64,000 nt of DNA from an uncultured Verrucomicrobiae bacterium. GTDB taxonomy: Bacteria > Verrucomicrobiota > Verrucomicrobiia > Limisphaerales > JAFGQR01. The notes under the pieces were generated by a model that was not told where the DNA came from, searched no databases, and was given only the letters and a program-made list of their open reading frames with translations. Position numbers and translations under genes: made by a program. The stretch is from the NCBI GenBank assembly GCA_963788655.1, contig CAWBHS010000049.1, forward strand, positions 96,001 through 160,000, given 5' to 3'. This document shows, in pieces, positions 7,268 to 10,410 of the stretch (positions within the stretch are counted from its first letter, which is position 1; each line of letters begins with the position of its first letter).

Positions 7268-7394
7268 GAAGGCAGCTTAACCAAAAGGGGGAGAGCAAAG
7301 CAAGGATCACATGACGGTTCGCAAACACACCGCCCGATGGTCAGCTTGCCATTGCCCGCTTGCCAGCGTGGGCCGGACGCGTCATCTTATGTCC

Positions 7395-7637
7395 ATGAAA
7401 ACAGCCAGTGTGCAGCAGGTGCCGCAGCGATGGACGGAAATCCTGGAATGGGTGGCCGCCGGTGAAGAAGTCGCCGTCACGCAGCAGGACCAGGTGGTGG
7501 CGAGGCTCGTGCCCGCTTCGTCCACACCCGCCACTCAACCGGATTTTCTGGCTCGCGCCAAGGCCATCTGGGGTGAGGAACCGTCGGGCAAACCGTTAAG
7601 CGAGTTGGTGACGGAAGCGCGCGGAGGCGAAGCGTGA
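7395..7637 (+). CDS. Phd/YefM family antitoxin
   Basis: MKTASVQQVPQRWTEILEWVAAGEEVAVTQQDQVVARLVP. Confidence 0.8.
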   Translation: MKTASVQQVPQRWTEILEWVAAGEEVAVTQQDQVVARLVPASSTPATQPDFLARAKAIWGEEPSGKPLSELVTEARGGEA

Positions 7638-8062
7638 CCTATCTCGACACCGGTTGTTTTGTCAAACTCTACTACCCCGAACCGGACAGTGCTCAGGTGA
7701 TTGCTGCCATCCAGGGAAAGCCGGTCTGCTTCACGCCACTCCATTAACTGGAATTTGTGAACGGGTTGCAACTGAAACGGTTCTTCCAGGGAGCAACGGC
7801 GACCCAAGTAGCGGCGGCCCGGGCGCTGGTGGAAGGTGACTTGAAGGCTGGCGTGCTCGTGCCGGTTGGCGGAAATTGGAATGGCATCTTCCAAGAGGCC
7901 GTGACATTGGCGGAACAGCACACTGACATGCTGGGTTGCCGGTCGCTCGACATCCTGCATTGCGCCGCGGCGAAAATGCTGGCGGTGAGTGAGTTCATCA
8001 GCACGGACATCCGGCAAAAGAAACTGGCCGTGGCCATGGGGTTGAACCTGGTGACGATTTGA
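7634..8062 (+). pseudogene. VapC/PIN toxin with in-frame TAA at 7745-7747
   Basis: GTG start, (M)TYLDTGCFVKLYYPE..TPLH*LEFVN..CRSLDILHCAAA..STDIRQ. Confidence 0.8.
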
Positions 8063-8067
8063 GAACG

Positions 8068-8263
8068 GCTCACCGAAATGTTCCGCTTCCCCCCAACGTC
8101 GCAATAAACCGCTGCCGATCCTCGTCATCGCGAAAGATCGGCTCCCGCCGGTCCCCTCGATTCATGAAATGATACATCGCTCCGAGATACTCCACTCTGA
8201 GCTTGCGCGCCATACCGCCTACCCTGCCAAAACCTTCCGCAACCTGTCAATATCAAGAACTGA
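8068..8263 (-). repeat. RAYT leader + 5' fragment, copy 5 (best preserved; leader interrupted by IS110)
   Basis: ATG 8213, MARKLRVEYLGAMYHFMNRGDRREPIFRDDEDRQRFIATLGEA. The leader resumes at 10147 (cccgttta). Confidence 0.9.
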
Positions 8264-8585
8264 TAAGCATCTAAAGATGATTGGAAAACGACTTATGATC
8301 GAGAGCGACTTGAGAGGGCGAACGGGGCTTGGTGATGGCGCTGTTCGGGCGGGCCTTGACGCGCCGATTCGCCGAGGCGGGGCGAGTCCGTTACGCGTGG
8401 CGACCGACGGCGACGCGAGCGGGAGGCTCGAACGCTCGTCGCCGTCGCTCGCCCGCCCCGGCGAATCTTCCGGCGCGAGCACGACGGGAATGCACGTGGA
8501 GCCGAGCGGGCCAGGTTTGTTAAGCTCGCGGCGAGCTGAGTGGTTCGCCCCTCAGAAAACAACGCAATGAAACGAATAACGAACC

Positions 8586-9654
8586 ATGAAAGAACCAAAT
8601 AAGACGCGCCGCAAAGCGCGACCGAAACCCGACCTCTATGGCGCCGTGGATCTGCACGGGAACAACGGCCTGTATTGCCTCATCAACCAACACGACGAAC
8701 GGGTGTTTCAACAACGTCTGCCCAACGATTTGCCGACGGTGCTCCAAGCCCTCAAACCGTTCCGCGACCGTTTAGTTCACGGCCTGGCCGTCGAGTCCAC
8801 CTTCAACTGGTATTGGCTGGTGGACGGGCTGGAGGCCCACGGCTACACCCTGCAACTGGTGAACCCCACCAAAGTGCAAACCTACAGTGGCCTCAAGCAG
8901 ACCAACGACAAAACCGACGCCTTCTGGTTGGCGCACCTGCAGCGCTTAGGCGTGCTGCCCACGGGCTACATTTACCCGAAAGCCCAGCGCGGCGCCCGCG
9001 ATCTGTTACGCCGGCGGATGTTCCTGGTGCAACAGCGCACGGCCCACGTGCTGAGTTTTAAGTCGCTGGTCGAACGCGAAACCGGTAATCACATCCCGGC
9101 CAACACCGTCAAGGCGCTGGCGACCGAGGAAGTGAGCCAGTGGGTGAATGGCAACGAAGCGGTGCTAATGGGGCAAACCAACGTGCGCGTCGATCGACTG
9201 TCTGGACGAACAAATTAAGCGCCTGGAACAAGCGGCCCAAGCCCAGCTCAAGCTGCTGCCCGACTACGAACGCCTCCAGCAGATTCCCGGCCTGGGCCCG
9301 ATCCTCAACCGGGTGATCATGCTGGAGACCGGACCGATCACGCGGTTTGCCGGGGCGGGCAATTACGTTTCCTACTGTCGGGGAGTGCGCGCGGAGAAAC
9401 TCTCCAACGACCGTAAGAAAGGCGAGAACAACCGCAAGTGCGGGAACAAGTATCTGGCCTGGGCCTGGATGGAAGCAGCGCATTTTGCGATCCGCTACAG
9501 CCCGGAAATCAAAGCGTGGTATCAACGCAAACTCAAACGCTGCGGCGGCCAGACGGCGATCGCCCTCAAAGCGGTCGCGGCCAAACTGGCCAAAGCGGCT
9601 TATTACCTCCTCAAGAATCAGGAAGATTTCAAGATGCAACAAGTCTTTGGCTAA
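8586..9654 (+). CDS. IS110 DEDD recombinase/transposase, frameshift near 9190
   Basis: AVDLH..AVESTFNWYW..KQTNDKTDAFWLA; C-terminal IPGLGPI..YVSYC..LSNDRKKG..GNKYLAWAWMEAA..KAVAAKLA. Confidence 0.95.
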
Positions 9655-9659
9655 GCTTT

Positions 9660-9998
9660 CGGTGGGGGCGGCAAATCCGATAAACGGGTTGGTGCGAAAC
9701 CACCAGAACTGATTGGAGCGCCGCCGCCACCGGATCCATTTAACAGCTCGGGCGAGCTGGCAGTAAACGCTGTTTTGCCCGGCCCAGGAGTCAGCATGGG
9801 TTGAACGCGGGCGGACGGGAAACCGCCCTGGCCGCGAGTCATGGGACTGTGCGCATGAAATGAACCTGGGTTGGTACGAATGATTTTCTGGCTCGGCGCG
9901 AGCGGAGTGGGGCCGGTTCGAGACGCAGGCCGCCAGGCCTGCCGGACCGGACTAGAACCAGATGGATGACTGGACAAAACGGACGGCGACCCGCAGGC
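9660..9998 (+). ncRNA. Putative bridge/seek RNA of the IS110 element
   Basis: A stem at 9661-9672/9720-9731 encloses taaacgggt (9681-9689) and agaactga (9705-9712), which match the two halves of the target. atggatga (9962-9969) matches the element's right end (10139-10146). Confidence 0.8.
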
Positions 9999-10271
9999 GG
10001 GGCGTCAAAAGTTGGAACCTGGCGATGGAAGTTGTCGGTGCAACGGCGGACCTGGCGGCACGGACGAGCATCGGTACGTCGTGTCAAAAAACAGTTTTTT
10101 GGCGATAGAATAATTTTGTCTCTTGACTCGAACCTTTAATGGATGACCCGTTTAGACCCGTTTACGTTACGTTTATGGTCGGCTCGCTCATGGAATATTC
10201 AATTGTCTATCAGATAATGCGCAATAGAGAAGCCTAAAGGGCAAAGGAAATTTGGCAGATTTGCTCGACCC

Positions 10272-10301
10272 CAATTGATAGGAATTTGCTTTTTTGACGC
10301 T
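10272..10301 (-). mobile_element. Orphan IS91-type oriIS-like end
   Basis: aattgataggaatttgcttttttgacgct is identical to 12683-12711. Confidence 0.8.
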
Positions 10302-10317
10302 CCGCGCTTCAGCCCCT

Positions 10318-10369
10318 CCGCTTTGCGGCGAGGCGCCGCAAACAGCACGCGAGGCGCGTGCGCTCCCCA
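10318..10369. repeat. REP-like palindromes
   Basis: tttgcggcgaggcgccgcaaa followed by gcacgcgaggcgcgtgcgctcccc. Confidence 0.55.
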
Positions 10370-10410
10370 AAAACCATCTTCACCCCGGCTACGCCTTTTC
10401 TTAATCCGCT

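Follow-up and report, generated by a model that had tools for sequence, protein, structure and literature searches.

An IS110-family insertion sequence in a Verrucomicrobiota genome with a probable 3'-encoded bridge RNA

The stretch of DNA analyzed here ("the window") comprises 64,000 nucleotides from an uncultured Verrucomicrobiae bacterium (assembly GCA_963788655.1, contig CAWBHS010000049.1, positions 96,001 to 160,000); the host genome is available as 8.96 Mb in 115 contigs and is 86% complete. Positions 8264-10146 of the forward strand hold a 1883-bp insertion sequence (IS) of the IS110 family with IS1111-type organization, and we consider it very probable that the non-coding region 3' of its recombinase gene encodes a bridge RNA/seekRNA carrying guides for both target and donor. 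The recombinase gene is present in two pieces with the Pfam domains by which IS110-family members are recognized (Table 1). The N-terminal piece is 70% identical to residues 1-189, and the C-terminal piece 69% identical to residues 190-342, of the closest full-length relative, L005. The NCBIfam model NF033542, 'IS110 family RNA-guided transposase', matches both pieces (72.9 and 91.2 bits), each of them alone falling under its cut-off of 140 because the gene is split. There is a single break, with L005 aligning up to nucleotide 9191 and then in the +1 frame from 9193; a first reading of the window made from its letters alone (the sequence-only reading) had placed a frameshift at 9190. The break might conceivably be an assembly error instead of a real mutation. 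Among solved structures, phmmer retrieved IS621 (8wt6, E 8.5e-6) and ISCro4 (9t56, E 3.5e-7), in both cases through the C-terminal domain only.

The borders of the element are well defined. The left flank ends in aagaacTGA (8255-8263), the element terminates in atggaTGA and the right flank starts with cccgttta, so that TGA is found at both junctions. Excision of 8264-10146 in silico rebuilds the 16-mer AGAACTGACCCGTTTA, as the sequence-only reading had stated, and the same 16-mer is found uninterrupted once elsewhere in the genome (C75:113725), where it shares the gtcaatatca context; 10 more sites occur at ≤2 mismatches. This is the scarless, site-specific type of insertion, at a short core present on either side and lacking long terminal inverted repeats, that characterizes the IS110 family. 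In the window, 492 nt of non-coding DNA lie downstream of the recombinase gene vs. 322 nt upstream, while relatives have 367-527 nt downstream (39 relatives) vs. ~12-100 nt upstream. A longer non-coding region 3' of the gene is a mark of the IS1111 group, and the upstream value of the window is inflated because a foreign repeat sits there. Ends are conserved in the family (a slash marks the junction): TGA/TAATCAT[CA]TA at the left and [CT]TAATGG[GAC]TG[ATCG]/CCCC at the right. Relatives also have subterminal inverted repeats of 8-12 bp (e.g., TAGCCAGCC/GGCTGGCTA and ATAAAAGGC/GCCTTTTAAT), the length in the IS1111 group being 7-17 bp; in the window this repeat is only TAAAG (8272-8276)/CTTTA, and when extended against 10132-10139 it matches at 6 of 8 positions. 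A literature search for three end motifs returned 0 occurrences.

Table 1. Features of the element, its predicted RNA and its target site (positions in the window)
Feature	Position	Strand	Remarks
N-terminal 47-aa fragment of a gene like those of REP (repetitive extragenic palindromic)-associated tyrosine transposases (RAYT; Y1/HUH)	8070-8213	-	Start ~50 nt from the insertion point
Left target part	8246-8263	+	Outer part of the REP-like 23-nt repeat gtcaatatcaagaacTGA; ends in the core
Left end (donor right half, TAAGCAT...)	8264-8279	+	Family consensus TAATCAT[CA]TA; position 4 is G instead of T
GC-rich palindromic repeat in the left non-coding end	8360-8458 (within ~8330-8490; ~100-130 nt)		81% identical to C52:344-441
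Recombinase, N-terminal part, DEDD/RuvC-like domain	8586-9191	+	PF01548, E 3.5e-14, 53.3 bits (cut-off 29)
Recombinase, C-terminal part, +1 frame	9193-9654	+	PF02371, E 8.8e-13, 48.9 bits (cut-off 21.3); stop codon 9652-9654
Predicted target-binding hairpin (equivalent of a short seekRNA)	9661-9731	+	Covariance model R1, 62.7 bits, E 7.8e-15
Predicted 5' target guide, taaacgggt	9681-9689	+	Reverse complement of acccgttta, the right target half on the top strand
Predicted 3' target guide, agaactga	9705-9712	+	Same sequence as the left target half plus core on the top strand; would pair with the bottom strand
Predicted donor-binding multiloop domain	9770-9983	+	Closed by the long-range stem 9770-9778/9975-9983
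Branch hairpin M2	9779-9874	+	Target-hairpin grammar, AGYCA-N-GGGTTG...AGYCA-N-CTGT
Candidate 5' donor guide, atgattttc	9880-9888	+	Complementary to the family-consensus junction GA/TAATCAT; GATGATTTTCTGG nearly invariant in the family
Predicted 3' donor guide, gatggatga	9961-9969	+	8/9 identical to the right end aatggaTGA; atggatga (9962-9969) exact
-35-like hexamer TTGACT	10123-10128	+	18 nt from the right terminus; TTGAC kept in 40 aligned right ends
Right end (subterminal repeat, donor left half, core)	10134-10146	+	CTTTA 10134-10138; core TGA 10144-10146
Right target half, cccgttta	10147-10154	+	Followed by short tandem repeats gacccgttta, cgttta

The non-coding region opens, 7 nt past the recombinase stop codon, with a hairpin that the sequence-only reading had already described. 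Its outer stem (9661-9672/9720-9731) forms 11 of 12 pairs with a single G-G mismatch, and in the register conserved by the family the inner stem is TGG/CCA (9690-9692/9700-9702). The internal loop was said to carry both halves of the target, on opposite strands, and it does so in a way that is unique in the genome: in a search of the 8.96 Mb on both strands, TAAACGGGT-N(5-60)-AGAACTGA was found a single time, at this position, where 0.016 occurrences are expected. The 3' guides for target and donor both precede a YTGGA (TTGGA and CTGGA), and this context, likewise noted before, is kept in the family. A scan of 8000-10400 against Rfam 15 (E ≤ 1) gave 0 matches. Among the sequencing runs listed as containing the sequence, all with small shares, none is an RNA run. 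Integrase att sites also show short identities between element and target, and an identity at the DNA level with no RNA involved would account for the matches as such. We regard that account as highly improbable: the matches do not form a contiguous copy of the target, since the right half is reverse-complemented, lies 5' of the left half, and both occupy the two strands of the internal loop of a covarying hairpin. In addition, the recombinase is a DEDD/IS110 enzyme, a type for which RNA guidance has been shown experimentally (PMC11187229; PMC11208160).

Among the checks proposed in the sequence-only reading were to fold 9655-10146, to build a covariance model from homologous elements and to look for guide/target covariation among insertions. 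The 492-nt region folds with a z of -4.2, and 0 of 100 shuffled sequences fold as well. To obtain homologs, we scanned one genome per species and recovered 80 loci encoding related recombinases; the best relative is 70% identical and comes from a Verrucomicrobiales metagenome-assembled genome (MAG), and the others, from many phyla, are 44-59% identical. The hairpin alignment contains 59 sequences: the window, L002 (a second copy in the same genome) and 57 of the 80 loci, with loci left out for an incomplete reading frame, for <100 nt of downstream sequence, for lack of the hairpin (L012) or as one of 6 exact duplicates. All 59 share one layout, consisting of a variable outer stem, AACC, a variable stretch, GGGGTTGG, the TGG/CCA mini-hairpin, AACCA, a second variable stretch, CTGATTGG and the return of the outer stem. 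Across these sequences from many phyla, 87.8% of cells pair, compared to 61.9±1.2% after shuffling and 33-50% when the partner strand is slid. Double (compensatory) changes are found in 13 of the 13 pairs tested.

The loop strands of the relatives follow the DNA that flanks each element. Ends were placed by conserved terminal motifs, independently of the guides. In a fixed register, the guide of an element agrees with its own left flank at 4.45 of 6 variable positions vs. 2.78±0.13 for permuted pairs (n = 47, 0/20000 permutations); for the right flank the values are 3.21 and 2.62±0.16 (n = 33, 4/20000). A second scoring gives z = 11.8 for left flanks against the 3' strand and z = 6.6 for right flanks against the 5' strand (both 0/20000). 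Three negative controls stayed at or below chance level or close to it (LF vs. D3, z = -0.4, 14351/20000; RF vs. rcD5, z = -2.0, 19676/20000; LE vs. rcM1_5, z = 0.9, 4267/20000). Two loop segments matching opposite strands of the target and covarying with it are what defines a target-binding loop. The guides given in the sequence-only reading need one correction: only ~5-6 nt per strand vary and would be programmable, the GGGT of the 5' guide and the CTGA of the 3' guide being constants of the family. That the hairpin is merely a terminator or regulatory structure, with its resemblance to the flanks due to chance, seems barely conceivable. Its position 7 nt past a stop codon and its GC-rich sequence would suit such a role, but a T-run is absent after the hairpin, the combined guide match is expected only 0.016 times per genome, and the covariation between loop strands and flanks was seen with as many as 47 elements.

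One set of relatives provides a clean multi-copy case of the same guide logic in another phylum. A single Acidobacteriota MAG contains five copies (L032-L035 and L037) with identical RNA, all inserted in the repeat CCCTGAAAGGGC...ATTTGAATAGCCTGA / CGCTTCAGCGCCAGG, and both halves of this target match the target hairpin at 7-8 nt.

For the remainder of the RNA, a consensus fold was computed with RNAalifold from an alignment of 40 complete 3' non-coding regions. Downstream of the target hairpin, the fold predicts a multiloop domain whose long-range closing stem (helix 4) shows double changes in 7 of 9 pairs. It encloses, in order, the branch hairpin M2, the strand GATGATTTTCTGG (the 5' donor guide in the window), two hairpins and the strand GATGGGTGACTGG (the 3' donor guide). 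Considering all 58 pairs of the RNA, 87.2% of cells pair vs. 70.3% after shuffling, and 43 pairs have double changes. The sequence-only reading had called this an expanded architecture of about 340 nt, a description that we do not retain: ~330 nt is normal for the clade, as judged from the 3' regions of the 39 relatives. Its identification of atggatga as a donor guide for the right end is, by contrast, well supported across the family (right end vs. 3' donor guide, z = 10.2, 0/20000). Where the right end varies (GGATGA, GGCTGA, GGGTGT, GGGTGC, GGGTGG and GGGGTGA), the 3' donor guide varies with it, with six rows off by one base (L019, L053, L066, L067, L076 and L077). The other donor assignment of that reading, with atgattttc as the weaker partner, is upheld too. 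This 5' donor guide has a constant mismatch at the first base of the element, and in single elements it changes along with the left end (TCCTC, ACG(C), AAACAT and AGATCAT). A TGA core, as first proposed, is found at both junctions in the window; in several relatives, though, the two junctions disagree in the third base, which the donor guide follows, and the exchanged core may therefore be only TG.

Other copies show how the guides differ within one lineage. The genome contains one full copy, a 5'-truncated copy (L002) and a 70-nt right-end remnant (L004), while a further, unrelated match (L003) concerns the palindromic repeat; model R1 finds just two hairpins. L002 is 93% identical to the window over 826 nt, with differences in 62 of 831 aligned columns. 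Its 5' loop strand differs at 5 of 17 positions (vs. ~7% elsewhere) and its 3' guide reads aggactga. The right half predicted from the L002 guide, ACCCCTTCACC, fits the right flank of L004 at 9/11 positions, and a metagenomic relative, L154, has the same 5' guide as L002. Judged by their sequences, L002 and the copy in the window are a case of natural reprogramming, with two programs in one genome. Insertion of other copies at unrelated sites had been named by the sequence-only reading as evidence that would contradict it; what we found were related sites. The exact 18-nt right end occurs at 53 metagenome loci, 26 of which have IS-like sequence upstream (the other 27 are unrelated genes, 4 borderline cases, etc.), and these 26 represent 23 distinct right flanks with the consensus ACCCCTTTAC. 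Where the left junction is present, the left flanks (GTGAGGACTGA, GTGAGAACTGA, GTGGGACTGA) belong to the same repeat family as in the genome of the window, and the 3' guides agree with them at 7-8 of 8 positions. Left flanks in the close relatives L154, L151 and L144 are GGGACTGA, AGAACTGA and CGGTTTGA, each in agreement with the element's own 3' guide at 8 of 8 positions.

Both in this genome and in others of the same order, the lineage is often represented by 5'-truncated copies and solo right-end fragments (L002, L004, L091, L094, L100, L105 and L109). The L004 remnant is directly preceded by a target-like site, GGGACTGACCCCTAC.

Several observations speak against an RNA with guides for both target and donor, or limit the strength of the tests. 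The left ends covary weakly with the 5' donor guide overall (z = 1.8, 965/20000), and in the window this guide pairs with its own junction with 2 mismatches in 9. The same 7/9 count had been read from the sequence before, and it is explained by the left end of the element in the window, TAAGCAT, where both the family and the guide itself expect TAATCAT. The matching of segments to the two element ends, which defines a donor loop, is thus clear for the right-end guide, and for the left-end guide it takes the form of a conserved motif that follows the end in individual cases, with weak overall covariation. On the target side, the match of the right guide beyond the conserved ACCCC is poor in the close relatives L126, L144 and L128 (~5/9). 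The right flank of L002 itself, ACCCGTTTACG, fits the guide of the copy in the window at 9/11 positions and its own guide at 8/11; this requires either action in trans or a later change of the guide, and guides working in trans, which has been shown for IS621 (PMC11208160), might account for it. A fourth control, right ends against the 3' strand of the target hairpin (RE vs. M1_3), was not null (z = 2.8, 69/20000). The permutation tests ignore the relatedness of the elements, and rows with a clearly non-terminal motif match were dropped after inspection (left end, L008, L024, L043, L048 and L084, with L062 also dropped in later tests; right end, L008, L015, L023, L050, L055, L056 and L059).

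Part of this evidence would fit a simpler system, in which only the short target hairpin guides, the protein recognizes the ends through the subterminal repeats and the flank matches to the target, and the donor 'guides' of the multiloop are scaffold. With ISEc11, mobilization of a mini-element was even better with an 82-nt RNA by itself than with the long form, and reprogramming required changes of the donor flanks as well (PMC11187229); as that RNA has no donor guides, a donor multiloop may not be essential. The weak covariation of left ends with the 5' donor guide points in the same direction. We nevertheless think this simpler system improbable, as five variants of the right end, down to the base that follows TG, are mirrored in the 3' donor guide, individual elements show tracking at the left end (TCCTC, ACG, AAACAT), and in IS1111 orthologs the donor-binding nucleotides are located in a multiloop (Durrant et al., PMC11208160).

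We therefore prefer the reading with target and donor guides in one 3'-encoded RNA, as the sequence-only reading had proposed, on the strength of the predicted structure and the covariation of guides with flanks. From the anatomy of the element and these two kinds of covariation we infer that the RNA would be expressed, bound by the recombinase and used in recombination. Judging from published members of the family, the element would leave its site as a circle, its joined ends would form a promoter with the TTGACT hexamer as -35, and recombinase and RNA would be produced; circle-junction promoters have been published for the IS110 family (PMC11208160; PMC11187229). The non-coding region would then yield a bridge RNA/seekRNA of ~330 nt (~9655-9983). 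In its target loop, the 5' strand would pair with the right half (top strand) and the 3' strand with the left half and core (bottom strand), so that the two jointly specify AGAACTGA/CCCGTTTA. In the multiloop, the 5' donor guide would serve the left end and the 3' donor guide the right end. The RNA could in this way bridge circle junction and target, with the recombinase exchanging strands at the TG(A) core.

IS1111-type RNAs are 82-96 nt long (long forms, 148-172 nt), start after the stop codon and lie in the downstream non-coding region (PMC11187229). The window element resembles the IS1111-type ISEc11, ISPa11 and ISKpn4 in having a downstream non-coding region with the RNA right after the stop codon. 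Also shared with seekRNAs are a segment matching the top strand that lies 5' of the one matching the bottom strand, with an overlap of the two in the target, and, going by the relatives, subterminal inverted repeats (PMC11187229). The recombinases are of similar length (334-351 aa in the relatives of the window vs. 330-350 published for the IS1111 type; PMC11187229). Natural redirection among close relatives has been described for IS1111-type elements, and the target of ISPa11 is a REP (PMC11187229). Unlike in the IS1111 type, the window element has 492 nt of non-coding sequence and a predicted RNA of ~330 nt (vs. 82-172 nt; PMC11187229), the target/core is CTGA/CCCC, and the recombinase probably does not lie near the canonical IS1111 cluster, its plasmid relatives being labeled 'ISGsu4 family'. 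IS1111 bridge RNAs, too, are encoded in the right end with donor-binding nucleotides in a multiloop (PMC11208160).

With IS621 the element would share a two-part RNA in which each part has two opposite-strand guides around a short core (PMC11208160; 8WT6), identical donor and target cores, a circle-junction promoter and a REP or REP-like target (PMC11208160). The RNA of IS621 differs in being ~180 nt long, encoded in the left end upstream of the gene and reversed in guide order, and its donor loop is a simple internal loop, in contrast to the multiloop of the window element (PMC11208160). The recombinases of IS621 and ISCro4 are only distantly similar to that of the window element. ISPpu9 and ISPpu10 of Pseudomonas putida are likewise IS110-family elements in REP sequences with partial modules scattered in the genome, although host and clade are different (PMC12288879); for ISPpu9, a downstream small RNA was reported not to be required for transposition (PMC12288879).

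The ISGsu4-family label is that of plasmid proteins that are 46% identical to L005. In one such element (L110, on a Paraburkholderia plasmid and labeled 'ISGsu4 family transposase'), the ends, the target hairpin and the donor guide are as described here, and the guide is matched by the right flank, TCAACGAT. The source data of PMC11187229 list ISGsu4 under IS110, with an identity of 15-22% to IS1111 members; a literature search for a description of its RNA found none, ISGsu4 being named only in tables. A recent catalog lists 86 covariance models and 32,190 bridge RNAs of varied structure (bioRxiv 10.64898/2026.10.21.760802), and the family studied here is probably already included in such catalogs.

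As RNA guidance, a 3' location, multiloop donor sites and REP targeting have all been published (PMC11208160, PMC11187229), the understanding of the mechanism is unchanged, and the element adds a clean case to one that had already been described in 2024. All four predicted guide segments are legible from the raw sequence and can be checked against the junctions of the element itself, which makes it a textbook-clear natural example. The readable layout, with a hairpin after the stop codon and a donor multiloop, is extended to the deep-branching 'ISGsu4 family' clade, which occurs in many phyla and has a conserved CTG(A)/CCCC center; this clade could yield further orthogonal recombinases for engineering.

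The sequence-only reading had tied the target to RAYT-like genes, and the insertion does lie in a 23-nt repeat that flanks such genes in inverted orientation. Over 45 aa, the RAYT-like fragment left of the element shares 69% identity with the N-terminus of a full-length protein (307 aa) encoded on contig C22, which matches the NCBIfam model NF047646 for REP-associated tyrosine transposases at E 5.8e-13 (48.9 bits, under the cut-off of 80). The C22 gene is flanked by inverted copies of the 23-nt motif, 977 nt apart and with arms that are 91% complementary. Written as GTCAAT..AG[AG]AC[TC]GACCC, the motif has 24 matches in the genome at ≤3 mismatches, and at least 9 sites have, by eye, an open reading frame (ORF) with a RAYT-like N-terminus within 150 nt that reads away from the site and begins in the manner of the fragment in the window (M.R.LR.EY..A.YH..NRGDRRE.IF.DD.DR). 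A RAYT gene between inverted repeats together with dispersed copies is the arrangement of a REP/RAYT system. By its sequence, the target is a REP-like multicopy site, with the element sitting in the outer part of the repeat. Targeting of RAYT-associated sites as a trait of the whole family was rejected, since a crude N-terminus motif found a RAYT-like neighbor at 0 of 34 loci in other genomes. We read the RAYT association as a property of the lineage of the window, and the CTG(A)/CCCC center as common to the family.

The branch hairpin M2 repeats the grammar of the target hairpin. Its outer stem (helices 5-6) has double changes in 9 of 10 pairs. The 3' strand of M2 is similar to left flanks (z = 6.5), and there is a weak similarity between its 5' strand and right flanks (z = 2.3). 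As an independent second target guide, M2 was rejected: where the first hairpin differs from the flank, M2 agrees at 16 of 73 positions vs. 21.5±3.6 in permutations, 4746 of 5000 of which reach this value, although in this count the row of the window itself is in the wrong register. Of the 62 differences to L002, 10 fall in a hypervariable patch within M2 (9854-9863). The idea that this patch is an extended guide was rejected after four tests against distal flanks, all within ~1.2 standard deviations of permuted values; the patch also has a 10-nt match to 8163-8172, noticed by eye, which a rough estimate puts at chance level. At two loci (L013:1479-1762 and L084:4516-4774) the target-type hairpin is present twice in tandem, complete each time but with loop strands that differ; the two hairpins of L013 each reach 72 bits with R1, and the usual branch hairpin and the donor guides come after them. 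Such tandem hairpins may give one RNA two target specificities. We are doubtful that bridge RNAs of this clade carry more than two guide-bearing loops, counting the conserved M2 and the tandem hairpins; were the extra loops in use, bridge RNAs with an array-like, multi-target design would exist naturally in the clade. A literature search on tandem target-binding loops, judged by title and abstract, found none on the topic.

The copy in the window is probably inactive because of the frame break, the deviant left end, the weak subterminal repeat and the palindromic repeat in the left end. The deviation at the left end turns the -10 of the family junction, GATAAT, into GATAAG. The palindromic repeat has a sole other copy in the genome, at C52:344-441, and a predicted fold of -89 kcal/mol for 161 nt; going by the lengths of the left ends (~12-100 nt in relatives vs. 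322 nt), it is foreign to the left end of this family.

The surroundings of the target are repetitive and rearranged. Tandem repeats of the right half are found at C75:113725-113790, in the window (10147-10180) and in the right flanks of L091, L075 and L039, while in other genomes they read tgacccttttc and tgaccccaatcacc; in L068, the whole target is duplicated directly left of the element. Left of the RAYT-like fragment in the window, two small forward-strand ORFs occupy the place (7311-8062) expected for the remainder of the RAYT-like gene. The first (7311-7637) has a weak match to Phd/YefM antitoxins (E 1.8e-4, 21.6 bits, under the cut-off of 29.8) and the second (7757-8062) has no Pfam match; together they may represent a toxin-antitoxin pair that has taken the place of the 3' part of the gene. 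The right flank of the target (window 10176-10240; L002:2325-2460) starts a small ORF, reading MVARLRAETTMTWRWIAEQLAMGHW... in L002, that resembles the C-terminal end of the C22 protein (...RRLRQETTMTLAWIARRLQMGVW...). In some copies, the repeat may thus separate the two halves of a split RAYT-like gene.

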